In this document: positions 14,095-62,567 of the stretch, one piece after another
Position numbering within the stretch: the first letter of the stretch is position 1
Layout of the letters: the number at the start of each line of letters is the position of its first letter
NCBI GenBank assembly: GCA_001603955.1
Contig: LVAA01000062.1
Coordinates: forward strand, 8-64,007
Length of the DNA stretch: 64,000 nt
From: Syntrophobacterales bacterium Delta_02
GTDB lineage: Bacteria > Desulfobacterota > Syntrophorhabdia > Syntrophorhabdales > Syntrophorhabdaceae
Direction of reading: 5' to 3'
The notes under the pieces: model-generated
Seen by the model: only the letters and a program-made list of their open reading frames with translations
What the model was told of the DNA's origin: nothing
Databases searched by the model: none
Position numbers and translations under genes: made by a program

Positions 14095-14183
14095 GTTACC
14101 TGACCTCCTTGGTTCTTCTCTCTCTTCCATATTCAAAGATCTGTTCAGGCCAGGGGCCGGGGAATCGGCCCCTGCCAGCCTGC

Positions 14184-14996
14184 TCATTTTCCGTTTCCCG
14201 AGATCTCATCCTCTTTCATCTTCAAGCCCAGCAAGGCCGCACCGAGGGCGCCCGTCCTTTGCGGTAATTCGGGGATGACCAGTCTTATCCCGAGTTTCTC
14301 TTCGAGGACCTGTCTCACCCCCAGATTGTTGGCAACCCCGCCCGTAAAGGCTACATCCTGCTCGATCTTAGGATTTCCGTTTGCCCGCCGTACTGTCTCG
14401 ATGACCCTCGTGACTATCGCCTCGCAAACCCCGGAGAGTATGGCATTGAGAGGCACCTTCTGCATGATCTTTGATATTACCTCGCTTTCCGCAAACACGG
14501 TACAGATATTGCTGATCTTGGCCCTCTCCGTCGCAGAGGCGACCACCTCTCCCCAATCAGGGAGCTCAATGCGAAGCGCCTTCGCCATGACCTCGGTAAA
14601 CCTTCCCGTTCCTGCAGCACATCTCGTATTCATTGCATAGTTCGTGATGCGACCTGTCTCATTAAGGATGATCGCCTTGCTGTCCTGGCCGCCTATGTCT
14701 ATGATCGTCCGCACCGAGGGACACATGTGGTGGACACCCATGGCATGGCACATGATCTCCGTTCGGCTTGCGTCAGCAAAAGGCGCACTGTACCGTCCAT
14801 ATCCCGTACTCACGATACAGCCAATGTCCTTTCTCTCAAGACCTGCCTCCCGCAAACCATCCCGCAGTAATCCGTCACTGAGCCCTTCTACGTCGGGAAT
14901 TGTCTCCGTACATATATAGCTCAGGACCTCCTTTCGGTCATCGATGATCACGAATTTGGCCGCTACAGAGCCCACATCTATTCCAACCGCGTACAT
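14184..14996 (-). CDS. BadF/BadG/BcrA/BcrD-type ATPase, activase of a 2-hydroxyacyl-CoA-dehydratase-type enzyme (HgdC-like)
   Basis: 270 aa. ASKHA phosphate-1 motif MYAVGIDVGSVAAKFVII, then DIGGQDSK and CAAGTGRF motifs typical of HgdC/BcrD-type activators. Confidence 0.85.
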   Translation of the reverse strand: MYAVGIDVGSVAAKFVIIDDRKEVLSYICTETIPDVEGLSDGLLRDGLREAGLERKDIGCIVSTGYGRYSAPFADASRTEIMCHAMGVHHMCPSVRTIIDIGGQDSKAIILNETGRITNYAMNTRCAAGTGRFTEVMAKALRIELPDWGEVVASATERAKISNICTVFAESEVISKIMQKVPLNAILSGVCEAIVTRVIETVRRANGNPKIEQDVAFTGGVANNLGVRQVLEEKLGIRLVIPELPQRTGALGAALLGLKMKEDEISGNGK

Positions 14997-15014
14997 GGCA
15001 TCACTCTCCCTCGT

Positions 15015-16322: not shown

Positions 16323-16323
16323 G

Positions 16324-17466: not shown

Positions 17467-17559
17467 TTGTGTATCCTCCTCAGTAATCAGTGCCTGCAAC
17501 TCCAACCAAACTGTCAACGCAGCGTGCTCCCGCGCAATCCTACTTGTGAAGGCATCATT

Positions 17560-18279
17560 TCAAAGCAACGTTCCTTCCTTGATCAGGCGGACCATAGTCG
17601 TGAAACTGGTACCGAATGCCACCGCCTTTTCCACTTCTTCCGGTCTGCTCCTGACCGCGTTCTTCTTGTGGCCCAAGCCCACGGCCTCGATATAACCGAG
17701 AACCTGCATGCCGAGAAAAACGGTGAACTGGTACAGGATCTTCAGGGTATCAACGGTAGGATCGAAGGGTTTCATGGCGTCGAGGACGTCCCTTATGTTC
17801 GAGGGCCTCTCCACAAGCTTCAGTTCCTTCACCATCCTTATGAGAGTTTCCGGTCTGGCCTTGTGGTTCACTTGGAAACTTTCCGTCGGCACCGCCGGCG
17901 GGGGATAGCCCGCGCCGACTATCAAGGCCACCGGTTTGCCCTCGAGACCTGATTCCCAGTTCGGATACACCAGGCTGTGCGTTCTGTCCATGAAAGCCTT
18001 CATTTGGGCCGTGACACTGCAGCAGTAAACCGGCGTCGACAGAACGATACCGTCACACGCCCTCATCTTCTCCGCTATTGCACCGAAGTCGTCGTTTATC
18101 TTGCAGATCCCATCCCTGTCGCAGCGGTCGCAGTCCGTACAGAACCCCACTTTCAACTTGCGCAACAGGACCTCCTCAACCTCTGCTCCGGCATTTCTTG
18201 CGCCCTCGCCGAATTGCTGCGCCAGAAAATGCGTATTGCCGCGAATGCGTGGGGACCCGATTATGCTGAGTATCTTCAT
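17560..18279 (-). CDS. Iron-sulfur flavoprotein / NADPH-dependent FMN reductase-like flavodoxin-fold protein
   Basis: 239 aa. Flavodoxin-like N-terminus MKILSIIGSPRIRGNTHFL and Cys cluster CTDCDRCDRDGIC as in Isf-type proteins. Confidence 0.75.
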   Translation of the reverse strand: MKILSIIGSPRIRGNTHFLAQQFGEGARNAGAEVEEVLLRKLKVGFCTDCDRCDRDGICKINDDFGAIAEKMRACDGIVLSTPVYCCSVTAQMKAFMDRTHSLVYPNWESGLEGKPVALIVGAGYPPPAVPTESFQVNHKARPETLIRMVKELKLVERPSNIRDVLDAMKPFDPTVDTLKILYQFTVFLGMQVLGYIEAVGLGHKKNAVRSRPEEVEKAVAFGTSFTTMVRLIKEGTLL

Positions 18280-18666: not shown

Positions 18667-19222
18667 TCAGCCTTTCTGTGCGGGCCGATAGCCGTGTTTA
18701 GTGAACATTGCGCTACTTTGGTTGTACCCGCTACGAAGGAGCATCTTTGCGTATTCTATTGCCGTAATACGCGGTTCAATAACGGGCACAAGAACCCCAT
18801 TTCGCAGAAAATGATCTTTGTTCCGCGTATGCACGCACCATCCTCTGCGTGGCGAAAGCGGAATCCCTGTCGGGTTCCACGAGCACTATCTTGTCGCCCA
18901 GAGTGGAGGCAACCGCAAGGGTCGCCTCCCCGGGGCCTATTACAGGGAAAGAGACAAGTTCCCTCGCCGCTATCAGCCCGGGGTCTCCAAACCACCCGAC
19001 AATCGCCGCCCGGTATCCCTGCTTCTCTCCCTCGACAATCCTTTCTACTATTCCCGGAGTGTTATGCTCGACATCGGCATACCTTATCAGCGGATGTTTA
19101 CCTTCATCTATACCCACAACGTCCACGCCCGTCTGTTCATAATACTGCCTGGTCAGCGTAATCACGTCTGCTGGTTCGACAAACGGTAACACCATAAGTA
19201 TATCCCTCATATCTCGCCTCAC
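18667..19222 (-). pseudogene. Asp/Glu/hydantoin racemase family pseudogene (internal deletion plus frameshift)
   Basis: The 148-aa ORF 18776..19222 carries the N-terminal racemase half (GWFGDPGLIAARELVSFPVIGPGEA) and stops at ...AEQRSFSAKWGSCARY. A different frame over 18667..18810 encodes a family-typical C-terminus (NGVLVPVIEPRITAIEYAKMLLRSGYNQSSAMF). The central segment of roughly 60 aa is missing. Confidence 0.6.
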
Positions 19223-24845: not shown

Positions 24846-25946
24846 TCAGCGCACATCCACCTTGTGCCACGAAGTACCCGTCTCATTGCTGAAATAGATC
24901 CACCCACGCTTTCCCACGGCCGCAAAGCCTGCCTTTCCCCGCTGACACACGCCGCCTATGAATCCATACGTTACCGGAGGATCCACCTTGGCAGGCTCCA
25001 CGTTGCCGGGGTTATCCCTTCCCGACGCGAGAAGCCCCGTACCACCCATGATGATCCTTCCAGCATTGTGGGTCACGGCAAAGATGTGCGTTCGCGGTAA
25101 TGTAACGTTCATCTTGTTCCATGTCGCTCCCCCGTCCGTTGTCCTCCTGACGATGCTGTCTATCCCGACCGCCCATGCCGTGCGGGGATCTATCGCCGTG
25201 ATCTGAAAGAGGTAATCATCGGCCTCGATCTCACCTGTTGCATCGGAGATCACGTACCTCCCGGCCTGTTTTGTCCACGTAGCGCCACCGTTGGTTGTGT
25301 GAAAGATGTATCCGTATTCCCCGCAGGCCCACCCATTCATCTCATCGCAGAAGGAAACGCCCCTGAGAATGAAATCTGTATCCTTGAACTGAACGGCCCA
25401 TGTCTTGCCGCCGTCATCCGTGTGGATTATCGTTGTCTTTTCGCCCACGGCCCAACCTTTCAGTGGACTCAGGAACTGAACCCCCATGAGGAGAAGCGCG
25501 ACAGGGCTTTTCTGTTTCACCCACGTCTTCCCGCCATCGGATGTGTGAAGGATCGTGCCTCTGTCTCCCACGGCCCAACCGGTCTTTGCATCGACAAAAC
25601 TTATCGAGGTCAGGAGATCGATCGAGCCTGTGTTCTGTTTCGTCCACGTCTTCCCGCCATCGGATGTGTGCAGGATCGTACCCCACCGACCGCAGGCCCA
25701 TCCGTGGGTCTCGGATCCAAAACTTACCGAGAGCAGGTCGTGGGGATATCCCAGTCCTGAACCCGAAACCGCCGGGGCGCGCAGGAGAGCGAAGCAAAAG
25801 CACGACAGCACCAGGATCATAAACATCCTCGCGAGCAGTGACCTGGCAGCAGGAAACCGTCCTGATACCTTTCGGTGAGATCCAATGTTCTTCGGGTAAA
25901 ACTGCATTCTCCTCGTCTCCTTCATGTGCGGCAACCTCCCCTGCAC
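24846..25946 (-). CDS. BNR/Asp-box repeat beta-propeller protein (Ycf48-like)
   Basis: 366 aa. Signal peptide and repeated Asp-box motifs (TSDGGKTW twice, TDDGGKTW, TNGGATW, TDGGATW). Confidence 0.75.
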   Translation of the reverse strand: MQGRLPHMKETRRMQFYPKNIGSHRKVSGRFPAARSLLARMFMILVLSCFCFALLRAPAVSGSGLGYPHDLLSVSFGSETHGWACGRWGTILHTSDGGKTWTKQNTGSIDLLTSISFVDAKTGWAVGDRGTILHTSDGGKTWVKQKSPVALLLMGVQFLSPLKGWAVGEKTTIIHTDDGGKTWAVQFKDTDFILRGVSFCDEMNGWACGEYGYIFHTTNGGATWTKQAGRYVISDATGEIEADDYLFQITAIDPRTAWAVGIDSIVRRTTDGGATWNKMNVTLPRTHIFAVTHNAGRIIMGGTGLLASGRDNPGNVEPAKVDPPVTYGFIGGVCQRGKAGFAAVGKRGWIYFSNETGTSWHKVDVR

Positions 25947-29265: not shown

Positions 29266-29760
29266 TCACGCTGCCCCTCTTGCCAGCCGGTCGACATACT
29301 TCAACAATGTCGGAATCCGGGCGGTACCGTGCATCGACCGGATCCTTTCAGCAGCATCCACCGGGTCCATGCCGGCCGACGTAACATACAGGGGCCTCTT
29401 GCTCCTTCCCCGCAAGACCTCCACTCTCGTAGAGCCCCTGTACTCCGATTTCGCCACGCCGATCACGGGCACCTTCCCGCCAAGACTTTCAAAGAGATGC
29501 CGGCCGAGACCCGGTCGTCCGGCGAGCATCAAGTAACCGTCGACTATCATTTCCGCGGGAACCTCCTGGAACTCGTGGAGCAGCCTGAGAATGCAGGGCA
29601 GCTCACGCCTGTAGAACTGTCCGGGCACGTAGCGGAAGACCGCATCCACCGGCACGGTATACGTGAGACATGCCGTCGCGTCAGAATAGTGACGGAAGAG
29701 CACCGCCGCTGCCGATGCCTTCCCGTCCGGAAAGTAGTGGACGTCAAAAGCCGCTATCAT
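29266..29760 (-). CDS. Endonuclease V family protein (short form)
   Basis: 164 aa. Alignable by eye to Nfi: IAAFDVHY (catalytic Asp), YVPGQFYRRELP (PGxxxxRE), MIVDG, PVIGVAKS, PLYVTSAG...IPTLLKYVD. Confidence 0.7.
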   Translation of the reverse strand: MIAAFDVHYFPDGKASAAAVLFRHYSDATACLTYTVPVDAVFRYVPGQFYRRELPCILRLLHEFQEVPAEMIVDGYLMLAGRPGLGRHLFESLGGKVPVIGVAKSEYRGSTRVEVLRGRSKRPLYVTSAGMDPVDAAERIRSMHGTARIPTLLKYVDRLARGAA

Positions 29761-30429: not shown

Positions 30430-30558
30430 GCGGAAGACCGCATCCACCGGCACGGTATGCGTTAGACATGCCATCGCGCCAGAATAGCGATGGAAGAGCA
30501 CCGCCACAGATGCCTTTCCGTTCGGAGAGTAGCAGACATCAAGTGCGGCGATCGTCAC
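30430..30558 (-). pseudogene. Truncated duplicate of the 5' end of the endonuclease-V-like gene
   Basis: 129 bp, about 83% identical by eye to 29632-29760, with one 3-bp indel. Encodes VTIAALDVCYSPNGKASVAVLFHRYSGAMACLTHTVPVDAVFR, then diverges to a stop. Confidence 0.65.
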
Positions 30559-33950: not shown

Positions 33951-34056
33951 GCCTTCAAGGTCCAACGTCAAAGGTTCAACGTTAGAAGAATACGGAATGG
34001 GGATCGTTCCGGGAGAGAAAACTGTTTCAGGTTCCGGGTTTCACGTTTCAAGTTAA
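33951..34056. repeat. Composite repeat element (chimeric: 9-mer-type left part, 7-mer-type right part)
   Basis: The left part TTCAACGTTAGAAG resembles TTGAACGTTAAGAAC of the 42.2-kb element. The right part is 4 heptads GTTTCAG GTTCCGG GTTTCAC GTTTCAA (34024-34051). Lies between convergent gene ends. Confidence 0.5.
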
Positions 34057-34105
34057 AAGCCAGGAAAAACACCGGTGCCCGCAGGGGCGGGGTCTGTCAC
34101 CGGTC

Positions 34106-34942
34106 TTACCCGGTCTCTTCGAGACGCCTGACGAGATTACCTGCCACCTGTCTTCGATATTGCGCTGACGCGCGGATATCGCTTATGGGACGGACCCCCT
34201 CTCGGGTAATGGCCGCCGCCGACACCAGGGTGTCTCCATCCATGGGTTTCCCGGCAAAGCACTCGTCGAGGTCCCGCGAGGTAAATACCGTGGGGGCAAC
34301 GCTTCCAAAGGCGCACCGCGCCCTGGCGACGACCCCCCCGGCGCCGATGGCCGCGGCGAAGGCGAAGGAGGCAACGCTGATCGCCATGGCCTTGCGCTGT
34401 CCCACCTTCTCGAAATGGTTGAAGTTGAAACCATGGTCCTTCCGCATGACGACGGCACAGAGGACCTCGCCTGGCGCAAGCTGCGTCCGGCCGGGACCCG
34501 TGATGAAGGCCTCGACGGGTATCCTGCGTTCCCCCCGGGGCGAACGAAGCTCCACTTCGGCTCCATAGATGTAGAGCGGCGGTAATGTGTCGCCCGCCGG
34601 GGATGCGGTACAGATATTGCCGCCGATCGTCCCCATGTTCCGCACCGCCGGCGCCCCCACGTGCCGTGCCGCCTCGCGGAGAAGAGGGAAAAGGCCCTTG
34701 ACGAGACCGCCGGACACCAGTTCGCTGTGTGTCGTTGCGGCGCCGATACGCACCTCGTCCGCGCTTTCCTCGACCACCCTTAGTTCCTTTACTTTCTCGA
34801 TACAGACCAGGGGGCTTTCAACACCCTGAAATGGCAGGCGCACCATGAGATCGGTACCACCGGCGAAGATCCTCACCGCGGGCTGATCGGAGATTATCCC
34901 GAGGAGTTCCTCCAGTGACAGCGGGAGATAGACCTTAGCCAT
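34106..34942 (-). CDS. Molybdenum hydroxylase FAD-binding subunit (CoxM/XdhB-like)
   Basis: ORF 34106..34987. The start MAKVYLPL at 34942 overlaps the upstream stop (ATGGCTAA). FAD motif IFAGGTDLMV. Confidence 0.85.
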   Translation of the reverse strand: MAKVYLPLSLEELLGIISDQPAVRIFAGGTDLMVRLPFQGVESPLVCIEKVKELRVVEESADEVRIGAATTHSELVSGGLVKGLFPLLREAARHVGAPAVRNMGTIGGNICTASPAGDTLPPLYIYGAEVELRSPRGERRIPVEAFITGPGRTQLAPGEVLCAVVMRKDHGFNFNHFEKVGQRKAMAISVASFAFAAAIGAGGVVARARCAFGSVAPTVFTSRDLDECFAGKPMDGDTLVSAAAITREGVRPISDIRASAQYRRQVAGNLVRRLEETG

Positions 34943-35420
34943 CCGAACCGCCCCCCCGCATCTTTGCCGCAGCGTCCTCGATGGCATCGACTATCTTCTG
35001 GTATCCCGTACACCGGCAAATGTTGCCGCTGATCGCTTCCCGGATCTCTTCCCGCGTCGGCCCGGCATTCTCCTCCAGGAACCCGACGGCCGTCATCACC
35101 ATGCCGGGCGTGCAGAAACCGCATTGCACCGCGCCGAGTTCGACGAAAGAACTCTGCACGGGATGCAGCTCACCGCCGCGGGAAACCCCCTCGATGGTGA
35201 CCACCTTTCTGCCATTCAGCTGTGCCGCCGTCATGAGACAGGATAGTTTCACCACGCCGTCGATGAGGACCGAGCAGGCACCGCACTCCCCCTCACCGCA
35301 CCCCTCCTTCGTACCGGTAAGGCCAAGATCCTCGCGCAGAACATCTACGGCCCTCCTGGCAGGGTCTGTCACGACGGTCATGGGGGAACCGTTCAGGATA
35401 AAGGATATCTTCTCTTTCAC
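34935..35420 (-). CDS. (2Fe-2S)-binding small subunit of a molybdenum hydroxylase (CoxS-like)
   Basis: 161 aa. GCGEGECGACSV, QCGFCTPGMVM and NICRCTGYQKI motifs. Confidence 0.9.
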   Translation of the reverse strand: MKEKISFILNGSPMTVVTDPARRAVDVLREDLGLTGTKEGCGEGECGACSVLIDGVVKLSCLMTAAQLNGRKVVTIEGVSRGGELHPVQSSFVELGAVQCGFCTPGMVMTAVGFLEENAGPTREEIREAISGNICRCTGYQKIVDAIEDAAAKMRGGGSDG

Positions 35421-37702
35421 CCCTCCCCTCCTTCCCGGGCAAGAGCCGACAACACCCTCTCCGGGGTCAGCGGCAGTCTCGATACCCTCACCCCGCAGGC
35501 ATCGTGAAAGGCATTGGCTATGGCGGGCAGGGACCCGCTGATGACCACCTCTCCGATCCCCTTCATACCGAAGGGACCCGTCGTTTCATCGGACTCTACA
35601 GGAACGGAGACCATGTCGGGGACATCCAGGGACGTGGGAACGATGTAGGTCGCCAGGTCTCCCGTCTCGTGCCGGCCATCCTTTACGATGTAATCCTCCA
35701 TGAGGGCGTACCCGATGCCCTGCGCGATGGAACCCTGGACCTGCTGATCGTACAGGGAGCGGTTCAACACCCTGCCCGCATCGGTGACGGCCACATAATC
35801 GACGACATCTATCCTTCCCGTCAGGGTATCGACCTCGATGCGGGCCAGATGCGCGCCGTAGGAGAACAGCACGTGTGTGCCAAGGTACATTATCTCCATG
35901 GTATTCTCGTCGTAAGGGGTCCGGAAATAACCCTTGCACGACCTGTCTCCGGCATCGATGAGGGCCGCCACGTCACGGAGGGAGATCTCACGGCCCCTTT
36001 CCCTGATCCTCACAGCACCCGGGACCAGCTCCACCGAGTCAGCACCCTCGACCCCCGAAGACCGGGCAGCCGACTGAAGGATGGCCTCCCTGAGTGCCGT
36101 CGCCGCCTGTATAACGGCATTACCGAAGGTGTACGTCGTACGGCTTGCCGAGGAGGAGCCCGAGGGAAGACCGTGGTCCGTATCGGGCTGGACGATCTCC
36201 ATCGTTGCCGGGTCCTGGTTCAGTACCTCAGCCGCTATCCTGAGGTAGGTGGCCGCATTCCCCTGTCCCATATCGGTGACACCCGAATAGACGCGAAACG
36301 TCCCGTTCTCTCTCAGTTCCACCCGGGCATTCGCCTCGTCGGGAACCACGGCGGGATAACCTATCGCGTGGGCCATGCAGCCGACACCGCAGCCGCGCCT
36401 CTTCCACCCGCGGGCCGACGCCTTCCAGGCCTCCCGGTCTCTCCACAAAGGATGGTCCAGGAGCCTGTCCACACACTCCGGGAACCCCGTCGAGTATTTA
36501 AGCTCCACGCCCACGCAGTTCAGGTCGCCCGTCCTCAGCGCGTTGACACGGCGCAGCTCGAGAGGGTCAAGGGCGAGCTTCTGCGCCACCATGTCGACAA
36601 CCTGTTCCATGCCCGCCATCGACTGCGGCACGCCGAAACCCCGAAAAGGGCCTCCCAGGGCATTGTTCGTATAGGCACAATACCCCTCGATGTGAACGTT
36701 GGGTATCCGGTATGCCGATCCGGCATGTTCCACACCCATTGCCATGATCTCGCCGGAGAGTCCCGCGTAAGGGCCACCGTCGAAGTAGAGCCTGCAGGAA
36801 AGCGCCTGAAACGCGCCGTCTTTCTTCGCTCCGAGGCGATAGTACGTCTTTGCGGGGAGCCTCTTCACCCCGGCGAGAAAACTCTCCCGTCTGTTCCACC
36901 ACATCTTCACGGGCACTCCCCCCGAGTTCAAAGCGGCAAGGCCCAGCAGGCATTGCACCGTTATACCGTCCTTCCCGCCGAAGGCCCCTCCGAGATAGGG
37001 GGCAATGACACGCACTTTATCCACGCCGAGGCCCAGGGCGGCCGCCATCTCCTTCCTGTCCCGGTGGGGGTTCTGCGTCGATACCACAATGACCAGCACC
37101 CCGCCGTCATCGACATAGGCCCAACCGGCTTCCGTTTCGAGATAGGCGTGCTCCTGGCGCGGTGCCTCGAAAATACCCTCGGCTACGACGTCGCAATCGC
37201 GAAAGGCCGCGTCGGGGTCTCCCCGCCTTACACGTACAGCCCTCAGGAGATTCCCTTCCTCGTTGTCCTCGTGGATCCTGGGCGCACCTTCCTTCAGGGC
37301 CTCTTCAGGATCGAAGACACCCGGCAGCAGCTCGTGGTCGAAGGTGATGAGATCGAGCGCCTCGCAAAGCGCCTGACGGCTGTGGGCCACCACCACGGCG
37401 ATGGGGTCCCCCGCGTGGCGGATGACCCTGTCGACAAGCACCGGCTGATGGTTCCTCACGATCCCGAGCCTGTTCGACCCGCCAACATCGCGGAAGGTCA
37501 GGATGCGAACAACACCGGGATGCGCCGCGGCGAGTGATGTGTGAACGGCTAGCAGCCGTGCGTGCGGCACGAGAGCCCGCTTCGCGCCGGCCCAGAAGAA
37601 CTCTTCCGAATACTCGTCGGCGGCGTATCTCTCCCGTCCCGTGACCTTCGAGAAGGCGTCGAGGCGGGGTCCGTCGAGGACATGTCTCCCACCTTCCTTC
37701 AC
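35417..37702 (-). CDS. Xanthine dehydrogenase / aldehyde oxidoreductase family molybdopterin-binding large subunit
   Basis: 761 aa. GGAFGGK and GGPFRGFGVPQ motifs. 4-nt overlaps with both neighbours. Confidence 0.9.
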   Translation of the reverse strand: MKEGGRHVLDGPRLDAFSKVTGRERYAADEYSEEFFWAGAKRALVPHARLLAVHTSLAAAHPGVVRILTFRDVGGSNRLGIVRNHQPVLVDRVIRHAGDPIAVVVAHSRQALCEALDLITFDHELLPGVFDPEEALKEGAPRIHEDNEEGNLLRAVRVRRGDPDAAFRDCDVVAEGIFEAPRQEHAYLETEAGWAYVDDGGVLVIVVSTQNPHRDRKEMAAALGLGVDKVRVIAPYLGGAFGGKDGITVQCLLGLAALNSGGVPVKMWWNRRESFLAGVKRLPAKTYYRLGAKKDGAFQALSCRLYFDGGPYAGLSGEIMAMGVEHAGSAYRIPNVHIEGYCAYTNNALGGPFRGFGVPQSMAGMEQVVDMVAQKLALDPLELRRVNALRTGDLNCVGVELKYSTGFPECVDRLLDHPLWRDREAWKASARGWKRRGCGVGCMAHAIGYPAVVPDEANARVELRENGTFRVYSGVTDMGQGNAATYLRIAAEVLNQDPATMEIVQPDTDHGLPSGSSSASRTTYTFGNAVIQAATALREAILQSAARSSGVEGADSVELVPGAVRIRERGREISLRDVAALIDAGDRSCKGYFRTPYDENTMEIMYLGTHVLFSYGAHLARIEVDTLTGRIDVVDYVAVTDAGRVLNRSLYDQQVQGSIAQGIGYALMEDYIVKDGRHETGDLATYIVPTSLDVPDMVSVPVESDETTGPFGMKGIGEVVISGSLPAIANAFHDACGVRVSRLPLTPERVLSALAREGGEG

Positions 37703-40309: not shown

Positions 40310-42241
40310 ATGTGGCCCATGGCCACACCCCTTCTCCCCATGACACAGGCCGAGGTAAAGGACCGCGGGTGGGACGGCCTCGACGTCGTCCTCGTGACCG
40401 GCGACGCCTACGTGGACCATCCTTCCTACGGCACCGCCGTCATCGGGCGCGTCCTCGAGGCGGCGGGCTTTCGCGTCGGCGTCATCGCTCAGCCGGACTT
40501 CAGGACCACGCGCGATCTCAGCCGCTTCGGAAGGCCCCGGCTTTTCTTCGGCATAACCGCCGGCAACGTGGATTCCATGGTCGCCAACTATACCGCGCAC
40601 AAACGCCCGCGGCTAAGCGATGATTACTCTCCCGGAGGAAAACCCGGGCTGCGTCCCGACCACGCCGCCATCGTCTACGCCAACAGGGCCCGCGAGGCTT
40701 TCAGGGACGTCCCCATCGTGCTCGGCGGCATCGAGGCAAGCCTCCGCCGGTTCGCCCACTACGACTGGTGGAAGAACGAGGTCCGGCGTTCCATCCTTCT
40801 CGACAGCAGGGCGGACATCCTCGTGTACGGCATGGGGGAGGCACAGGTGGTAGAGATAGCCCGGAGGCTCGCGGCGGGTGAGAACCTTCACGGGATCAGG
40901 GGAACAGCGGTGGTGACGGCCGCAGGCCGCACCACCTCGCAGGTCCCATGCCACACGTCGCAAGGGACAGCACAAGGGCAAAAGACTGAATTCTCCCCAA
41001 ATGCCGTCTCGGCAATATCTGCATTCCGAAACGGGAAAGGGGAAACGGGAAACCTGAAACGTGTGACCTGCGACCTGGGACTTGTAGTTGAGATCCCTTC
41101 GTATGAGGAGGTAAGGGGGGATATCGACAAGTTCAATGAGGCATTCCGGATCGTTGTGGAGAACCAGGATCCCTTTACGGGAAAAACACTGGCGCAGGGG
41201 CATGCCAACCGCTTCGTCATCCAGTATCCCCCTGCCCTGCCGCCGGACACGAAAGACCTCGATGCCGTTTACGAGCTTCCCTATGCTCGCCGCTGCCATC
41301 CGTCGTATGACAGGGCGGGGGGCGTGCCCGGTTTCGAAACGGTACGCTTCTCCATTATTTCCCACCGGGGTTGTCCCGGCGAGTGCTCGTTCTGCGGCCT
41401 CTCTCTCCACCAGGGGAGGATTGTCTCGTCGCGAAGCGAATCGTCGGTACTGAAGGAGGCCGGGACACTTGCGAGGAGAAGGGATTTCCGCGGCACCATC
41501 ACCGACGTGGGCGGTCCTACCGCCAACCTCTACGGGGCTGTCTGCGGAAGGTGGCAGGGAAAAGGGGCCTGCGGCACCCGTCACTGCCTCACGCCTTCGC
41601 CGTGCAGGAACCTCAAGCCCGGTTACGAAAAGGGCCTTTCCCTTTATGGAAAGCTGCGCGCGCTGCCGGGCGTCAAACACGTCTTCATCGAGAGCGGCTT
41701 CCGCCACGACCTTCTTGTCGACCCGAAGGCCCGCGGCTATCTCGAAAGGATCTGCAGGGACCATCTGAGCGGGCGCATGAAGGTTGCCCCTGAACATTCT
41801 TCCGACAGGGTCCTCGATATCATGAACAAACCCTCCTTTTCGGTATACGAGCAATTCTCAGCCCTCTACCACTCGATATGCAGAAAGCTGGGGAAGGACC
41901 AGCACCTCGTCAGCTATTTCATCAGCGCCCACCCCGGCTGCACACTGGAGGATTCTCTTTCCCTCGCCCTGAGACTTGGCGAACTGGGTATCCACCCCGA
42001 ACAGATACAGGATTTCATGCCCCTGCCAATGACCCTTTCCGGCACCATATATCACACAGAGAAAGACCCTTTCACCGGAAAACACGTGTATGTCCCCAAG
42101 ACCTTCCGGGAGAGAAAGATGCACCGCGCCCTCATCCAGTACAAGAACCCGAAGAACACCCCGCTGGTCAGGGAGGCGCTGAAACTCCTCAAGAAGGAGT
42201 ACCTGCTGCCGAGGCTGATGCCGGGGAGAAAGACGGTTTAA
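40310..42241 (+). CDS. ygiQ: YgiQ-family (UPF0313) radical SAM protein
   Basis: ORF 40244..42241. The start at 40310 or 40319 aligns with family N-termini ([34 protein letters not shown]). Radical SAM motif [12 protein letters not shown]. Confidence 0.85.
40937..41083. repeat. Intragenic heptad-repeat segment inside ygiQ (look-alike of the intergenic composite elements)
   Basis: 8 consecutive heptads GAAACGG GAAAGGG GAAACGG GAAACCT GAAACGT GTGACCT GCGACCT GGGACTT (41028-41083). ACGTGTGACCTGCGA (41059-41073) is complementary to TCGCAGGTC...CACACGT (40937-40958). AAAAGACT at 40980-40987. Confidence 0.5.
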
Positions 42242-42399
42242 ACCGCTTGAACCGCTTGAACCGCTTGAACCGCTTGAACGTTAAGAACGAAAGACGGGAG
42301 CGAACGAGTACGGTCTGACTCCGGGTTGTCATGCGTGGGACGGACCCTGTCCGCTCCTTCATTTCCAGTTTCTAACGTTCAAGCGGTTCAAGCCGTCTT
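42230..42399. repeat. Composite hairpin element, 9-mer class, with (AACCGCTTG)x4
   Basis: Perfect 4x 9-mer at 42241-42276. Inverted partner AACGTTCAAGCGGTTCAAGCC at about 42374-42394. Termini AAGACGG (42230-42236) and CCGTCTT (42393-42399). The ygiQ stop TAA lies at 42239-42241. Confidence 0.8.
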
Positions 42400-42478
42400 T
42401 CCCCGGTCTTTGTTTGCCTTACCCCCTGTTTCGTTGTATGATACCACGAATATCAGGTCAACAAGGGGGTCGTAGGAA

Positions 42479-43165: not shown

Positions 43166-43306
43166 AAGACCGCTTGAGCCGCTTGAATAGCTTGAGCCGC
43201 TTGACGGCTTGCTGACAAAGTGGACTTATGCGTCATTCCGGCGAAGGCCGGAATGACGACAAAACAAAGAAAGACCGAACCGAGAAGCGGTTTTATCAAC
43301 GGTCTG
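43166..43306. repeat. Composite hairpin element, 9-mer class, with a nested REP-like palindrome
   Basis: Starts right after the stop TGA (43163-43165): AAGACCG CTTGAGCCG CTTGAATAG CTTGAGCCG CTTGAC. The right part is GAGAAGCGGTTTTATCAACGGTCT. The core holds a 12-bp perfect stem at 43231-43258. Confidence 0.7.
43231..43258. repeat. REP-like palindrome of the widespread IPAFAGMT-type class
   Basis: CGTCATTCCGGC-GAAG-GCCGGAATGACG. The minus-strand translation reads VIPAFAGMT. Confidence 0.7.
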
Positions 43307-43821: not shown

Positions 43822-43979
43822 AAGACGGTTCCAAGTCTCAGGTCTCAGGTTTCAAGGAAAAGATAAAAACTGTCCTGGTCAGTCCCTCTTCGGTTTTTGA
43901 CTCGAAACGCGCAACCCGGAACCTTTACAGCAACTGTCTTTTGCCTGAAACCTGGAACTTGAAACCTGAAACCGTCTTC
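43822..43979. repeat. Composite hairpin element, GGTTTCA heptad class (type specimen)
   Basis: 9-bp terminal inverted repeats AAGACGGTT (43822-43830) and AACCGTCTT (43970-43978). Left arm GGTTCCA AGTCTCA GGTCTCA GGTTTCA. Right arm CCTGAAA CCTGGAA CTTGAAA CCTGAAA. Fills the gap between the convergent stops at 43821 and 43982. Confidence 0.85.
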
Positions 43980-45538: not shown

Positions 45539-45548
45539 GAAAACTCCT

Positions 45549-45620
45549 GGTGATGGGTCATGGGTGATGGGAAAGACTCGAAGGCCATACCTATTACCCA
45601 TGACCCATGACCTATAACCC
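45549..45620. repeat. Composite hairpin element, GGTGATG/CCCATGA heptad class (copy 1)
   Basis: Left arm GGTGATG GGTCATG GGTGATG GG. Short core GAAAGACTCGAAGGCCATA. Right arm CCTATTA CCCATGA CCCATGA CCTATAA CCC. Lies 11 nt upstream of the ATG at 45538. Confidence 0.8.
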
Positions 45621-45637
45621 GTTCTATGTTTTTTTTC

Positions 45638-45667
45638 AGTATATATGGAACCGCTAGGTTCTGACAA
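45638..45667 (-). promoter_or_regulatory. Candidate sigma70 promoter for the TPP-enzyme gene
   Basis: The minus strand reads TTGTCA (45662-45667), 18-nt spacer, TATACT (45638-45643). This would place element 45549-45620 in the 5' UTR. Confidence 0.3.
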
Positions 45668-45682
45668 GGTATATTGAGAATC

Positions 45683-45770
45683 AGGTGAGGCGGGTGATAG
45701 GCTATGGGAAGAAATGCGGGTTGGAACCGTTGGAACCGTTACACCGTTCTTCCCCATGACCCATGACCCG
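45683..45770. repeat. Composite hairpin element, GGTGATG/CCCATGA class (copy 2, degenerate left arm)
   Basis: Left AGGTGAGGCGGGTGATAGGCTATGGG. The core contains tandem GGAACCGTT x2 (about 45723-45740). Right CCCATGA CCCATGA CCCG. Confidence 0.6.
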
Positions 45771-45863
45771 ATTTGCCCCTGGCACCTATTTTTGTCCCGT
45801 CCGTACCGGTCATCTTGTTATCCCCGGCCAAACAACTTATAATAGAGTTGATTTGAGAAGAAA

Positions 45864-45945
45864 GGTAATAGGTAATAGGTGACGGGCGGCCGACCATGAC
45901 CCTGCGGTTCTTTTTCCCATCACCCATGACCCATTACCCGTAACC
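45864..45945. repeat. Composite hairpin element, GGTAATA/CCCATTA class (copy 3)
   Basis: Left GGTAATA GGTAATA GGTGACG GG. Right CCCATCA CCCATGA CCCATTA CCCGTAA CC. Ends 18 nt before the ATG at 45963. Confidence 0.8.
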
Positions 45946-45962
45946 TGTTTCATCGAGGTTCC

Positions 45963-49215: not shown

Positions 49216-49553
49216 AAAGAGAAAAGATGGACAAAAAAGCCGAGGCTCACGAACCCCCCGAACGCTTCGAGACGACCCGGCACTACATCTCGGCACTCCT
49301 CGAGGAAGGGACATACACATCGAAAGAGCTGTCGAGCATCGTCAAGATACCGGAGAGGGACATCTGCGACCACCTGGAACACCTGCAGCGCTCCCTGAGC
49401 AAGGGTGACAGGCGCCTCACCGTGATCTGTGCCTCCTGCAAGCACTGCGGGTTCGTCTTCAAGAAGCGCGACCGCCTCACAAAACCCGGCAAATGCCCCT
49501 CCTGCCGCTCCATCCACATCCAGCCACCGGTGTTTCATATAGAACAGTTTTAA
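49212..49553 (+). CDS. Small HTH plus zinc-ribbon regulator-like protein
   Basis: 113-aa C-terminal part of ORF 48918..49553. The ATG at 49212 overlaps the upstream stop (ATGA). CASCKHCGF...CPSCRS zinc-ribbon. Confidence 0.6.
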   Translation: MKREKMDKKAEAHEPPERFETTRHYISALLEEGTYTSKELSSIVKIPERDICDHLEHLQRSLSKGDRRLTVICASCKHCGFVFKKRDRLTKPGKCPSCRSIHIQPPVFHIEQF

Positions 49554-49657
49554 GTGTTAAGTTTTAAGTGAAATACCCTGCGAGGCAGAAGACGTTCGGT
49601 GCAGACTCTCACCGCCGGGCATTCAACACTTAAAACTTAACACTTAAAACTTAAAAC
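49547..49657. repeat. Composite hairpin element, GTTTTAA/GTGTTAA heptad class
   Basis: Left arm GTTTTAAGTGTTAAGTTTTAAGTG (49547-49570). Right arm CACTTAAAACTTAACACTTAAAACTTAAAAC (49627-49657), its reverse complement plus one extra unit. The first unit supplies the stop TAA at 49551-49553. Confidence 0.85.
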
Positions 49658-49716
49658 GGTAACTTCTCATCATTATTGCAATTACCAAGCTTTTCTGTTA
49701 TATATTTCGATTGCCT

Positions 49717-58530: not shown

Positions 58531-58688
58531 TTCTTCGCCTCCCTAACTCCTGTAGCCCCCCATTACGCAAGTATAGCATTGACCTCCTCTTTTGGGTATG
58601 ACTTACGCAAGCATCGAAACTCTCCCCGAAAAAAACCCGGTATCGGCCAATCCGGTCGCGATAACCGTACGATGGCCTTTCGTTCCTT

Positions 58689-58719
58689 CCCATCACCCAT
58701 GACCCATCACCTGTTACCC
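58689..58719. repeat. Solo arm of the CCCATGA heptad class
   Basis: CCCATCA CCCATGA CCCATCA CCTGTTA CCC. No convincing partner arm upstream. Confidence 0.6.
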
Positions 58720-58773: not shown

Positions 58774-59349
58774 ATGCCCGATACCATTGCAACAGACGGA
58801 TCCGTAAGAGAGCTGACCTTCCAGGTCCCTCTTTCGGAGATCTACAAGTTCAACGAACCGGAAAAGGTGAGCGACCTTGGTCAGGTCCTGGAGGCCGGCC
58901 GGCAGAAACCTGCCGCCATGGGTCCCGCCAAGAGGTTCATCACAAGCACGATAGGGATATTCTGCCTCATGATCGGCCTTACGGGCCTCTTCGGCCGGAA
59001 CCCCGATATCTTCAGCGTCCTCTGGATCATCTTCGGAACGGTGATCATCTGGGTCTTCCTGGCAAAGCCGGAGATGGACAAGAGGAAGGCCGGGGGCGCC
59101 TCCGACACGAAGAAGGAACCCGAGGTGACCCTCGTCGTCAACTCCAACAGGATAGTGATACGCTTACCCGGCAGTGAGACGGCAAGGGAGTGGACGGAAT
59201 TCCTTCAGTACAAGAAAACAAAGAAGGGGATCCACCTCCACTTCCTCGACGGCACAACGATCTGGCTGCCCGAAGAAGCTTTCTACGACAAGGACGAAAT
59301 GAAGGAACTTCTGCGGTTGCTTCAAAAGAAGGTTCCAGGTTCCAGGTGA
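58774..59349 (+). CDS. Hypothetical membrane protein (YcxB-like layout: two TM helices then a soluble C-domain)
   Basis: 191 aa. Hydrophobic pair ITSTIGIFCLMIGLTGLF / FSVLWIIFGTVIIWVFLA. The last 7 codons lie in a repeat arm. Confidence 0.6.
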   Translation: MPDTIATDGSVRELTFQVPLSEIYKFNEPEKVSDLGQVLEAGRQKPAAMGPAKRFITSTIGIFCLMIGLTGLFGRNPDIFSVLWIIFGTVIIWVFLAKPEMDKRKAGGASDTKKEPEVTLVVNSNRIVIRLPGSETAREWTEFLQYKKTKKGIHLHFLDGTTIWLPEEAFYDKDEMKELLRLLQKKVPGSR

Positions 59350-59459
59350 AAAACCTCTGAAGTAGAAGAGAGCTGTCCCTCTTGGGGCTTTGACTCGAAA
59401 CGCGCAACCCGGAACCCACAACTGTCTTTTGCCTGAAACCTGAGACTTGAGACCTTCTT
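59326..59459. repeat. Composite hairpin element, GGTTCCA heptad class, sharing a core with 43822..43979
   Basis: Terminal inverted repeats AAGAAGGT (59326-59333) and ACCTTCTT (59452-59459). Left arm GGTTCCA GGTTCCA GGTG. Right arm CCTGAAA CCTGAGA CTTGAGA CC. The core 59375-59453 is near-identical to 43882-43965. Confidence 0.85.
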
Positions 59460-59791: not shown

Positions 59792-59862
59792 CACGACCTC
59801 CGATCCAACATGGATTTTCAATATTCTGCACCTTTCCGCAGGAAAGGTCAAACAGACCGAAA

Positions 59863-59967
59863 AAGACCGCTCGAGCCGCTTGACGCCCCGTCGAACCTTA
59901 AAGAAAGACTTTGCCTCTGCATCTTCCGTTCAAACGGTTCAAGCGGTTCAAGCGGTTTCAACCGTCT
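59863..59967. repeat. Composite hairpin element, 9-mer class
   Basis: Left AAGACCG CTCGAGCCG CTTGACG. Core with GAAAGACT (59903-59910). Right GTTCAAACG GTTCAAGCG GTTCAAGCG GTTTCAACCGTCT, ending at the phosphofructokinase stop (59968-59970). Confidence 0.75.
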
Positions 59968-61137
59968 CTAATACAGAAACATCGGTTTCCCCAGCGTGTC
60001 GCGCACCTTTGGACGGTATGTCTCCACGTCGTACAGGGCAGTCACGTCGACCTGTTTCTTCGCGGCAACGACCATGTCCAGCGGGACCGTGGTGTATATC
60101 GCCTGATGGAGCGCCACCATGCGGCCCCTGTGGCCCATCGCTATCTGGTCGAGGGCCAGGCTGCCGTAAGACACGGCCACCATCCGGTCGAGGGAGTCGG
60201 GTGCTCCGGAACGCATCATGTAGGCAAGCTGCTGGTAGATGACGTTCACGCCCGAGCGCTGCTTTATCTCCTGGGAAATGATGTAACCCACACCGCCCAG
60301 CTTCTTGTGGCCGTAGGCATCCTCTATCCCCGTCTCGGTCACGGTCCCACCCACGGTATGAGCACCCTCGGAAATGGTCATGATCGCGTAGTTGGAGGGG
60401 TTCCTGGACCGGTCCGTCACGAGAAAACCGACGAGCCTGTCGAGGTCGAAAGGCACCTCCGATATGACCGCCCTGTCGACGTCGGCAAGGTAGGCCGCTA
60501 TGAGCGACGTTTCACCGGAGTTCCGGCCGAAAAGCTCGACGACACAGATGCGTTCATGGGAACCCGTCGTGGTCCGCAGGGCGTTGATGGCATCCACCGA
60601 GCGTGTGACGGCCGTCGAGAAACCGATGCAGAAATCCGTTCCGAACACGTCATTGTCCATGGTCTTCGGAATGGCGACAACCTGGACACCCTCCTTGTTG
60701 AGCCGGACCGCGTAGCTTAAGGTGTCGTCCCCGCCTATGGGGATGATCGCGTCTACTGCAAGGAACTCGAGAACCTTCAGGATATGCCTCGTGCAGTCGA
60801 TCCTTCCCGATTCCGTCGGGACCCGGTCGCCTGCCTCCACAAAGGGAGGCACTTCATCGGGATTAACGTTGCCCGGATTGGTCCGCGACGTGTGAAGGAT
60901 GGTCCCGCCGGTACGGTCGATGGTCCTCACCGTGTCGAGACTCAGAGGCATGACAAACCGCTGCGCCGTTTTCGGATTGTCGGGATCGATGTCGAGAAGG
61001 CCCATCCACCCTCTGCGGATACCCACCACGTCGATATCCTTCGAATCGGCACGGGCAACGACGGCCTTTATGGCCACGTTAAGCCCCGGAACATCTCCTC
61101 CCCCCGTCAGCACGGCGATCTTCTTCCTCCTTCCCAT
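59968..61137 (-). CDS. pfp: 6-phosphofructokinase, predicted pyrophosphate-dependent
   Basis: 389 aa. [21 protein letters not shown] (Asp rather than Gly) and IPKTMDND (Lys rather than Gly), which are the positions known to discriminate PPi- from ATP-dependent PFKs. Confidence 0.85.
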
Positions 61138-61185
61138 AAAAACACCTCCAATCCCTATCCGGGGCAGCTTCTGACTATAATGTTC

Positions 61186-61214
61186 TGTATAGTCGGGAAA
61201 GAAGGGAATGTCAA
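61186..61214 (-). promoter_or_regulatory. Candidate sigma70 promoter of the phosphofructokinase gene
   Basis: The minus strand reads TTGACA (61209-61214), 17-nt spacer, TATACA (61186-61191). GGAGG SD lies 6 nt before the ATG at 61137. Confidence 0.45.
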
Positions 61215-61225
61215 GGAAAGAGGAA

Positions 61226-61436
61226 AAGACCGTTTCAGGTTTCAGGTTTCAGGTTTCAGGTTTCAGGTTTCAGGTTTCAGGTTTCAGGTTTCAGGTTTCA
61301 GGTTTCAGAAGAAAGACTGCGGGAGGAGGCCGGTTGTCAACACAATTACTGGCTGGTGCCATTTGCTCCGCCAGGGTCTCCCCCCGGTGGCCGTTTCTTG
61401 CCTTTGCCTGAAACCTGGAACCTGAGACCTGAAACC
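61226..61436. repeat. Composite hairpin element, GGTTTCA heptad class, with expanded left arm
   Basis: AAGACCG, then (GTTTCAG)x11, GAAAGACT at 61311-61318, and right arm CCTGAAA CCTGGAA CCTGAGA CCTGAAA CC (61407-61436). Confidence 0.85.
61232..61308. repeat. Perfect heptanucleotide microsatellite (GTTTCAG)x11
   Basis: 77 bp with no interruption. Begins 18 bp upstream of the -35 of the candidate phosphofructokinase promoter. Confidence 0.95.
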
Positions 61437-61479
61437 ATCAACGACCTGAACTTCGGAAACCGAAGTTCAGGTCGTTGAT
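61437..61479. repeat. Perfect 20-bp-stem palindrome
   Basis: ATCAACGACCTGAACTTCGG-AAA-CCGAAGTTCAGGTCGTTGAT. The right end overlaps the -35 of the candidate promoter for 61524..62567. Confidence 0.9.
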
Positions 61480-61503
61480 ATTGTTACACCTTTATGCTAC
61501 ATT
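61475..61503 (+). promoter_or_regulatory. Candidate sigma70 promoter of the dGTPase-like gene
   Basis: TTGATA (61475-61480), 17-nt spacer, TACATT (61498-61503). Short leader without an obvious SD before the ATG at 61524. Confidence 0.35.
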
Positions 61504-61523: not shown

Positions 61524-62567
61524 ATGAATATCCGTGAAAGACTGGAGGAAAGGGAAGAGCAGATCCTGTCGCCCTGGGCGCAGAAGAGCGTCGCCACGCG
61601 CGGACGGGTCCGTCGGGAGGCCGAGTGCGACATCAGGCCCGCCTTCCAGCACGACCGCGACAGGATAACACACAGCAAATCCTTCCGGCGGCTCAAGTAC
61701 AAGACGCAGGTCTTCCTTTCGCCCACGGGGGACCACTACCGGACACGGTTGACGCACACCCTCGAGGTGTCACAGATAGCGCGGACCATCGGCCGGGCCC
61801 TGGCCCTCAATGAGGACCTCGTGGAGGCCATAGCCCTCGCCCACGACCTCGGCCACACGCCCTTCGGTCATTCCGGCGAGGACGTCCTCAACACGCTCTA
61901 TCCCGGCGGTTTCAGGCATTACGAGCAAAGCCTGCGGGTTGTGGACCTCCTAGAGAAGGACGGGGCGGGCCTCAACCTGACGATGGAGGTCCGCGACGGC
62001 GTCGTCAAACACTCGAAAGGGAAAGGGGAGATAATTATCCGGGATGATGATGAAAGGCCGCTGACAAAAGAGGCAGAGGTGGTCCGCATCGCCGACATCG
62101 TCGCTTACCTGAACCACGATATCGATGACGCCATACGGGGCAACGTCATCAAGGAAGAGGATATCCCGGAACACCTCAGGGACGGTCTCGGTCACAACGT
62201 GTCGGAGCGCATCGATACAATGGTGCGCGGCGTCATCTCCAACACGCTGGGCAACGGCAGGATGGAACTGGGATGCGGTGAGGAACTGGAGACCCACATG
62301 GTGGAGATGCGCGATTTCCTTTATGATCGCGTCTATGAAAGCCCCATCGTTCACGCGGATTTCATCAAGTGCTCGAAGATCATCGAGGACCTCTACGGGT
62401 ACTTCCTCAAGCACCGCGACGCATTCCTCAAGGAAACGGGCCGCGAAGACTTCTACGACGACCCCGTCGCCTGCGTCCGGGACTTTATCGCGGGCATGAC
62501 CGACCGTTATGCCTTCAGTCTTTTTGAAAGGATCTTCCTGCCCATGCCATGGAACATTCCGGTGTAG
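61524..62567 (+). CDS. dGTP triphosphohydrolase-like HD-domain phosphohydrolase
   Basis: 347 aa. FQHDRDRITHSKSFRRLKYKTQVF, then HD motif RLTHTLEV...LAHDLGHTPFGH. Confidence 0.85.
   Translation: MNIRERLEEREEQILSPWAQKSVATRGRVRREAECDIRPAFQHDRDRITHSKSFRRLKYKTQVFLSPTGDHYRTRLTHTLEVSQIARTIGRALALNEDLVEAIALAHDLGHTPFGHSGEDVLNTLYPGGFRHYEQSLRVVDLLEKDGAGLNLTMEVRDGVVKHSKGKGEIIIRDDDERPLTKEAEVVRIADIVAYLNHDIDDAIRGNVIKEEDIPEHLRDGLGHNVSERIDTMVRGVISNTLGNGRMELGCGEELETHMVEMRDFLYDRVYESPIVHADFIKCSKIIEDLYGYFLKHRDAFLKETGREDFYDDPVACVRDFIAGMTDRYAFSLFERIFLPMPWNIPV

Follow-up and report, generated by a model that had tools for sequence, protein, structure and literature searches.

We consider it likely that the perfect heptanucleotide microsatellite upstream of the phosphofructokinase gene (pfk) of Syntrophobacterales bacterium Delta_02 is the recently and unilaterally grown arm of a foldback-type intergenic hairpin, a kind of element that is abundant in Syntrophorhabdaceae, has stems of 7-nt (sometimes 9-nt) tandem units and resembles the heptamer repeats of Xanthomonas, Nostoc and Calothrix. 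The tract is found in a 64,000-nt stretch of contig LVAA01000062.1 (all of it analysed here and called the window), in a 386-bp spacer between two divergent genes, pfk and a dGTPase-like gene with HD and HD_assoc domains (the HD gene). At 61232-61308 of the plus strand it reads as an unbroken, perfect (GTTTCAG)x11 of 77 bp, or (CTGAAAC)x11 toward pfk. The original prediction, made from the sequence of the window, had described this array as the expanded left arm of an inverted element, and had proposed that it is either a contingency (phase-variable) switch or the product of a very recent expansion. It is because of its genomic and phylogenetic context that we see the tract as the arm of a common structural repeat.

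The array itself stands as predicted: Tandem Repeats Finder (TRF) reports for 61232-61308 a period of 7, 11.0 copies, 100% matches and a score of 154, and when the window was shuffled 200 times with dinucleotides preserved, the longest perfect stretch of period 7 in each shuffle averaged 14.9 nt and reached 18 nt at most, against the 77 nt observed. The full element extends from 61226 to 61436. Its right arm, at 61407-61436, holds 4.3 units against the 11 of the left arm, in agreement with the earlier description; the short arm is imperfect, with 82% matches between units (TRF) and three substitutions over four units. It pairs with the long arm in eight registers and with 93% complementarity, and the hairpin would tolerate changes in long-arm length because the short arm finds a partner in any four of the 11 units. 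On either strand the arms close one long stem, with predicted folding energies of -47.5 kcal/mol as DNA (z=-5.4) and -94.4 kcal/mol as RNA (z=-5.3), and none of 200 shuffles folded as well as the element. A border motif that is common to other elements, AAAGACCG (61225-61232), straddles the junction between the flank and the first base of the array. The GTTTCAG/CTGAAAC unit has neither a G-run nor a C-run, and does not fall in the G-quadruplex (G4) subclass of heptamer repeats.

It is the length of the long arm that is exceptional. Across the inverted pairs of the window and of Syntrophorhabdaceae loci L001 and L014-L022, the number of units per arm has a median of 4.1 and a range of 2.1-5.6 (n=43), bar this tract at 11.0, and most of those 43 arms are imperfect. 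At the orthologous locus L001, the arm that matches the long arm has only about 2 units. Because the tract is perfect while its partner and the 42 other arms are short and mostly imperfect, we read the 11 units as a recent expansion, probably lineage-specific, one-sided and due to slippage; this is the second of the two alternatives offered by the original prediction, and the one that the comparison favours. The tract itself is likely to be hypermutable.

The way in which such elements may arise and change can be outlined. Replication slippage would lengthen and shorten the arms, and intramolecular recombination or template switching between the arms would keep them complementary and could flip the core. 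Arm length would usually settle near 4 units, and the 11 perfect units would be a slippage expansion too young for decay or trimming to have set in. The copy number of the long arm would not be a designed regulator of pfk. Should the element act at this site at all, its most likely effect, which we suggest more tentatively, would be to block stray transcription between the two promoters.

Turnover of the repeat at an orthologous slot

The slot between the promoters of pfk and the HD gene is occupied by this architecture in most related species, and unit, unit number, core length and orientation turn over fast. Orthologous loci were taken from metagenomes and species-representative genomes. No conspecific sequence was recovered: exact-protein look-ups for PFK and the HD protein found nothing, the exact pattern of the array/core junction had no match in metagenome contigs, and a scan for a degenerate version of the pfk promoter returned only other species. 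The nearest pfk genes share 86-88% DNA identity with that of the window. HD-pfk gene order is syntenic in 11 species, and in nine of these an inverted tandem-unit element lies in the identical slot, limited by a conserved hairpin and the HD promoter on one side and by the pfk -35 on the other. The elements differ in unit, of which there are about seven types: GTTTCAG in the window (4 and 11 units), a GTTCAAG-like unit in L001 (about 4 units in one arm and about 2 in the other; homologous core), ATAGGAC in L012, GGTAATG in L014 (20-nt core), GTAATGG in L006 and L022 (core of about 190-240 nt), TTCCACG in L015, GTTCCAC and GTTCCAG in L017, and CAGGGGT in L018. L016 and L019 have no element at the slot. 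What persists at this orthologous slot is the hairpin architecture, with the unit sequence swapped in nearly every species examined.

Aligned, the four closest species give two near-identical blocks around an unalignable middle. The first block comprises the HD promoter, its 5' untranslated region (5'UTR) and half of the conserved hairpin, and the second the -35, -10, 5'UTR and Shine-Dalgarno (SD) sequence of pfk; no conserved sequence was found in these four species upstream of about -43 of pfk. An open reading frame (ORF) called mechanically through the array (61208-61411, 67 aa) was rejected as coding, the region being unalignable in the closest species. Between L006 and L022, whose pfk genes are 94% identical, the unit number at the slot differs (7.4 vs 4.4), and with the approximately 2 units of L001 the comparison of copy number among relatives that had been proposed does reveal differences between species. 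The core is also flipped between these two loci: in L006 (3516-4000), positions 204-310 match positions 288-182 of L022 (9512-10000) at 87%, and the flanks are collinear. The arms therefore recombine, and it is possible that such elements contain invertible segments. Within species, the short and imperfect arms are stable: the spacer is identical across five independent samples of the L001 lineage, and across four to six samples of the L006 lineage, both with arms of this type.

The promoter next to the array has the geometry that was claimed for it, TTGACA-17-TATACA, with 17 nt (61215-61231) from the -35 to the first repeat unit. Of 17 Syntrophorhabdaceae loci, 14 have a TTGACA-N17/18-TATAnn sequence upstream of pfk, and three of these 14 (L020, L021 and L052) have another gene upstream and no repeat element; this conservation, with and without the element, argues that the pfk promoter is real and autonomous. 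Our consensus scan skips it because TATACA has no T at position 6. Inside the core, a candidate for a second promoter was rejected: its TTGACA, found in both L001 and the window, is not followed by an acceptable -10, and none is detected by the scan.

Family members, density and borders

The element next to pfk is one of many. The window has at least nine full hairpins of like build and three partial ones, all between 34 and 62 kb, with none detected in 1-34 kb, and they are the longest local inverted repeats of the whole window; in all, the intergenic DNA of these 64 kb of the genome contains at least 12 arrays or hairpins. The stem units are heptamers that resemble GTTTCAG, GGTGATG/CCCATCA or ACTTAAA, or else the 9-mer GTTCAAGCG. 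They are found in convergent, tandem and divergent spacers, according to a crude ORF map that is too rough for firm proportions, and the sister elements at 59.9, 59.3, 43.8, 42.2 and 49.5 kb are located at gene 3' ends. Some cores are related: a 28-nt motif, TTTGACTCGAAACGCGCAACCCGGAACC, is identical at 43896-43923 and 59389-59416, recurs with four mismatches in a third copy at 34030-34057 (minus strand), and has a single mismatch in the L001 orthologue of one of the two identical copies (around 5840), where the flanking coding DNA is only about 86% conserved. The core of the element next to pfk (61309-61406) has no second copy within the window.

In Syntrophorhabdaceae loci, 328 kb of DNA contain 23 inverted pairs of short-period arrays, or 0.70 per 10 kb, about five times the 0.14 per 10 kb of the outgroups. 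The phenomenon of heptamer hairpins spans phyla. In Chloroflexota outgroups, hairpins with heptamer stems and short loops stand right after the pfk stop codon (L039:11165-11247, L061:11155-11229 and L089:11155-11217), and the finding of this architecture with unrelated units in another phylum argues for a general mutational process. Long perfect heptamer arrays also appear sporadically elsewhere: L039, a metagenome-assembled genome of Chloroflexia, has a perfect solo (AACCTGC)x13.6 at 19106-19200 and, within 21 kb, four more arrays with 7-9 units each; (GTTTCAG)x18 is present in the viral contig L099. When viral contigs were scanned for (GTTTCAG)x4, the matches were eight solo arrays, unrelated, in backgrounds of diverse GC content and none of them with an inverted partner, and these are uninformative for the pfk-HD locus.

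The borders of the elements are unusual in composition. A T-run of at least four within 14 nt of an end is present in 12 of 24 Syntrophorhabdaceae elements, against 13.7% expected (p=2.4e-5), and the borders have on average 5.5 T in 14 nt, against 3.8 in the background. The motif AAAGAC(C/G)G occurs 13 times in the window, against five expected and a count that none of 100 shuffles reached; eight of the 13 copies are at element borders, and in several elements the complement lies outside the opposite arm. The A-rich and T-rich borders (AAAGACSG...CSGTCTTT) and the T-runs suggest, more tentatively than the family itself, the build of long-stem and often bidirectional intrinsic terminators or insulators. 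Short-core members of the family do fit the succession of stem, short loop and T-run. In the element next to pfk, the T-rich border faces the pfk -35.

These elements make Syntrophorhabdaceae, key syntrophic degraders of aromatic compounds in anaerobic digesters, a new lineage for a known kind of intergenic heptanucleotide simple sequence repeat (SSR), and extend that class to them. Such tracts are likely to behave as strain markers of the variable-number tandem repeat type, and as assembly break points in digester metagenomes. The interest of the system rests mainly on the pattern of the family, that is, a fixed architecture with replaced units, a mode of about 4 units without G4 potential, and terminator-like borders.

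Known repeats and competing explanations

Architectures of this general form are known from distant systems. The Foldback (FB) elements of Drosophila have long inverted arms made of short tandem repeats, with arms of unequal length, a variable loop, and recombination between arms that generates inversions; the analogy is one of architecture only, since FB elements are eukaryotic, of kilobase scale, and have a known transposase-encoding partner. REP, BIME and REPIN sequences are dispersed intergenic hairpin repeats, often at gene 3' ends, and some of them act as terminators or mRNA stabilisers. REP, however, consists of a single conserved palindrome of 20-40 nt accompanied by a RAYT, whereas the stems described here consist of tandem units that vary in sequence, and the window has no RAYT. 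The cyanobacterial short tandemly repeated repetitive (STRR) heptanucleotides that Mazel et al. reportedly described in 1990 from Calothrix PCC 7601 and Anabaena, several units per genome, tandem, dispersed between genes and useful as strain markers, are closer in kind, but they belong to a different phylum and have different units.

The closest likeness is with the intergenic heptameric SSRs described by Rehm et al. 2015 (PMC4692102), with the unit GGGAATC in Xanthomonas and GGGGA(C/T)T in Nostoc PCC 7120. Xanthomonas campestris has 186 arrays of 2-26 units, with a mode of 4 and a longest perfect array of 14 units, and about 70-75 of its arrays form close inverted pairs that can give stem-loops or cruciforms (PMC4692102). 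Most of them lie between the same genes in sister species, variable in length and sequence and beside housekeeping genes, and phase variation was judged unlikely (PMC4692102). Shared with the elements studied here are head-to-tail 7-nt units, an intergenic and dispersed distribution, inverted pairs, the mode of about 4 units, rare long perfect arrays and a slot kept in sister species. In Xanthomonas and Nostoc, by contrast, one G-rich, G4-capable unit dominates the genome, whereas here the units are not G-rich and at least four unrelated types occur in 64 kb; also unlike those systems, the unit is replaced between species at the orthologous slot, cores reach about 240 nt, T-rich borders are frequent and, in a small sample, divergent spacers are not avoided. 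The mode of 4 units in Xanthomonas has been attributed to the formation of G-quadruplexes (PMC4692102), and finding about the same mode with units that are unable to form them weakens that explanation, which may not be general. Another single-unit system is the TAACTGA repeat of marine Beggiatoaceae, cyanobacteria and Bacteroidetes, with intergenic direct repeats of 2-6 and up to 43 copies near housekeeping genes (MacGregor 2015, PMC4679880). Unlike the elements described here, it has one unit, nearly always in direct repeats just upstream of start codons, with one inverted case in the Beggiatoaceae genome. As cited there, Mrazek et al. 2007 found that heptanucleotides are the most abundant class of long SSR in the majority of prokaryotic genomes, and proposed a connection with the polymerase footprint (via PMC4679880).

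Two further systems bear on regulation. In Haemophilus influenzae, the (ATCTTTC)n tracts of hmw1A and hmw2A lie in the transcribed 5'UTR, where they pair with a non-identical partner arm in a long hairpin and slip in copy number; expression is inversely related to repeat length and processing by RNase III is needed, the product of the gene being an adhesin (PMC12721329). What the two have in common is a promoter-proximal heptamer SSR, long and perfect, that serves as one arm of a hairpin; the differences are that here the array is upstream of the -35, that no transcript is predicted across it, and that the gene belongs to central metabolism. In Vibrio cholerae, TTTTGAT heptads sit immediately upstream of the core promoter of ctxAB, three to eight of them depending on strain and biotype, in numbers that correlate with promoter activity, and they are AT-rich sites for ToxT, ToxR and H-NS (bioRxiv 10.1101/2021.05.14.444153). 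At the pfk slot, unlike at ctxAB, the unit is not conserved across species.

The contingency switch of the original prediction, in which slippage would alter unit number and with it the activity of the pfk promoter, by rotating or displacing an upstream site or through DNA structure, and so create population heterogeneity in glycolytic/gluconeogenic flux, appears improbable to us. The tract is indeed a long, perfect and slippage-prone SSR of the length class that phase-varies in hmw (PMC12721329), it lies 17 nt upstream of a conserved -35, the number of units at the slot differs between related species, and at ctxAB heptad number and promoter activity are correlated. But the array is wholly upstream of the -35 and not between -35 and -10, with no sign of an operator beneath it or of a 5'UTR around it, and no promoter was found that would place it inside a transcript. 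The four species with nearly identical promoters share nothing above about -43 that a change of spacing could displace, which speaks against the predicted rotation of an upstream site. The unit sequence differs from species to species, with unit types changing among nine of 11 species while the pfk promoter stays constant; the promoter exists in like form without the element in three loci; the tract is one of a genome-wide population of equivalent hairpin arms beside unrelated genes; the gene is one of central metabolism, not of surface or host interaction; and phase variation was judged unlikely for the analogous arrays of Xanthomonas and Nostoc. We also regard as very improbable a variant in which the 11-unit arm is a hypermutable length-tuner, where slippage would shift the pairing register (eight are available), the size of the loop and the distance from the core to the pfk -35, modulating insulation, termination or promoter activity and producing reversible and heritable heterogeneity in carbon flux. 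If it were true, a housekeeping gene of a free-living anaerobe would carry a contingency locus, and the heptamer foldback family would be a genome-wide source of tuners. For genome scans the case is a caution, as a perfect microsatellite beside a good promoter does not alone make a contingency locus. A binding-site array for a DNA-binding protein (an activator, a nucleoid protein or a SARP-like regulator of heptamer direct repeats) is less probable still: ToxT, ToxR and H-NS do bind heptameric direct repeats at ctxAB, SARP regulators reportedly bind such repeats, and the array is proximal to a promoter, but the unit is not conserved between species at the slot, a 7-bp spacing is out of helical phase, and unrelated genes have these units in inverted pairs at their 3' ends.

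It is doubtful, although conceivable, that the element is a non-autonomous mobile element (a miniature transposable element with inverted repeats, MITE, or a foldback transposon), the arms being terminal inverted repeats of transposase-binding heptamers and the elements independent insertions beside the conserved 20-bp hairpin as a hotspot. The arms are inverted and terminal, dispersed copies have a common core (the 28-nt motif at 43896 and 59389, diverged at 34030), the inverted border motif AAAGACSG...CSGTCTTT recurs, and different elements at one slot always start directly after the conserved hairpin. However, no transposase (Y1 transposases included), RAYT or integrase was found by Pfam among the approximately 49 ORFs of the window, the flanks of 24 elements, whose borders are imprecisely defined, show no evident target-site duplication, and within the window the core of the pfk element occurs only once. 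Retention at orthologous sites, with divergence that is gradual (the window vs L001, L006 vs L022), and the like architecture with unrelated units in Chloroflexota also speak against insertion. A transcribed structured RNA, either a hairpin in a 5' leader or a small RNA cut by a double-strand-specific RNase, with arm length tuning the fate of the RNA, is in our view quite unlikely. The predicted RNA fold is very stable (z=-5.3), 10 heptamer repeats form one arm of the RNase III-cleaved hairpin in hmw (PMC12721329), and most heptamer arrays of Xanthomonas are transcribed (PMC4692102); on the other hand, apart from the outward-facing HD promoter there is no promoter-like site upstream of the element on either strand, Rfam gives no match, the folding energies of the family have no strand bias, and the core is poorly conserved. 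That the copy number was inflated or arbitrarily fixed by the assembler is highly unlikely: tandem repeats are classic sites of assembly error, but standard reads are longer than 77 bp, the flanks run cleanly into conserved sequence on both sides, and comparable perfect arrays exist in independent assemblies (13.6 units in L039, 18 in L099).

Several points weigh against the preferred reading, of a recently grown arm of a structural hairpin that may insulate two promoters. Both the recency and the instability of the 11-unit arm are what we infer. The occupancy of the slot in nine of 11 species could mean that the structure is selected there, and the elements may have originated by in situ growth or by transposition. 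A role as terminator or insulator is doubtful for this particular element: no upstream transcript is expected, as it lies between divergent genes and not downstream of a transcription unit; it has the stem of an intrinsic terminator, but a loop of at least 98 nt in place of a short loop followed by a T-run; and a terminator scan of the pfk-HD spacer found none. Across the family, the folding energies of plus and minus strands have no consistent strand preference and no consistent relation to gene orientation, and there is therefore no sign of selection on a particular transcript. Selection at the RNA level, sought in G-U asymmetry, found no support in these energies.

Neighbouring features and other observations

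The features of the spacer and the family members of the window are listed in Table 1. Pfam matches to PFK and to HD plus HD_assoc on opposite strands bear out the divergent spacer shared with a dGTPase-like gene that had been described. The residues GGDD and PKTMDND of the phosphofructokinase are presumably the signature of pyrophosphate (PPi)-dependent enzymes (the Gly104Asp/Gly124Lys rule).

Table 1. Coordinates of the pfk-HD spacer, its genes and the hairpin elements of the window.
Feature	Coordinates	Strand	Remarks
Long arm	61232-61308	+	perfect (GTTTCAG)x11
Core between arms	61309-61406	.	98 nt; folds internally; homologous to L001 core, poorly conserved
Short arm	61407-61436	+	inverted, 4.3 imperfect units, CCTGAAACCTGGAACCTGAGACCTGAAACC
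Outer flank	61215-61231	-	GGTCTTTTCCTCTTTCC in pfk direction; T-rich tract after hairpin
pfk (phosphofructokinase)	59968-61137	-	Pfam PF00365, E=4.7e-66; GGDD / PKTMDND
HD + HD_assoc (dGTPase-like) gene	61524-62567	+	Pfam
pfk promoter, TTGACA-N17-TATACA	61186-61214	-	TTGACA 61214-61209; TATACA 61191-61186
Promoter of HD/dGTPase-like gene	61475-61503	+	TTGATA-17-TACATT with TG; sole promoter called by consensus scan
Perfect 20-bp-stem hairpin	61437-61479	.	ATCAACGACCTGAACTTCGG/aaa/CCGAAGTTCAGGTCGTTGAT; abuts short arm, overlaps HD-promoter -35; conserved in relatives
Sister hairpin, GTTTCAG type	43822-43978	.	42-nt arms, 81% complementary; between convergent genes
Sister hairpin, GTTCCAG/CTGAAAC type	59330-59455	.	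core paralogous to 43.8 kb core, orthologous to L001 5800-5940
9-mer hairpin, GTTCAAGCG	59862-59967	.	directly downstream of pfk stop codon
9-mer hairpin, AACCGCTTG	42225-42404	.	borders AAAGACGG...CCGTCTTT
GGTGATG/CCCATCA-like hairpin	45549-45620	.	
Two more GGTGATG/CCCATCA-like hairpins	~45690-45772, 45863-45945		same divergent spacer as 45549-45620
AGTGTTA/ACTTAAA hairpin	49544-49660	.	25-nt arms, 100% complementary
Partial hairpins	~34024-34061, 43166-43204, 58672-58718		

The block formed by the HD promoter, its 5'UTR and half of the adjoining hairpin shows almost 100% identity among four species that have 86-89% identity in their coding DNA; read toward pfk, the loop of the 20-bp-stem hairpin is TTT in some species and AAA in others. 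This hairpin at the HD promoter (block 61437-61503) may be an operator or an insulator. Rfam had no match at gathering threshold in the whole window, and a known RNA family in the spacer was rejected as a candidate, a permissive scan having given only sub-threshold, miRNA-like matches on the 20-bp hairpin. Readings of the array as CRISPR, iterons or a replication origin were likewise set aside, the units being contiguous without spacers and no replication genes being nearby. In the pfk 5'UTR (61138-61180 and orthologues), a small hairpin, GCCCCGGAnnGGGGAT, just before the GGAGGTG Shine-Dalgarno sequence is conserved in all four closest species.

Other repeats were seen along the way. The divergent spacer at 45540-45962, between the gene of a thiamine pyrophosphate (TPP) enzyme and that of a PAS histidine kinase, has three GGTGATG/CCCATGA-type hairpins in a row; the first starts beside the SD sequence of the minus-strand gene, about 10 nt upstream of its start codon. 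A match at 41018-41084 lies inside the coding region of a YgiQ radical-SAM gene and was removed from the family; it is a degenerate, in-frame, GAAACNN heptamer-like stretch in the Radical_SAM_N region, where 340 residues stand against a profile of 301 positions, and a repeat-derived insertion in this YgiQ-type coding sequence is possible. In L023, an imperfect (CACTGGC)x11 at 17497-17573 follows a promoter-like TATAGTATACT and ends a few bases upstream of an ATG, which recalls the TAACTGA repeats of Beggiatoaceae. A direct repeat of 76 nt, 92% identical, stands on either side of a DUF1236 gene (29632-29707 and 30430-30505), and four copies with a 123-bp period at 25264-25731 lie in a BNR/YCF48-like gene, most simply read as beta-propeller protein repeats. 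The window also encodes a BcrAD/BadFG-type ATPase with two HGD-D subunits (12793-17517) and a three-subunit molybdenum hydroxylase (34106-37702; MoCoBD, FAD_binding_5 and Fer2_2) that resembles 4-hydroxybenzoyl-CoA reductase, and the gene content of these two regions fits an anaerobic degrader of aromatic compounds.

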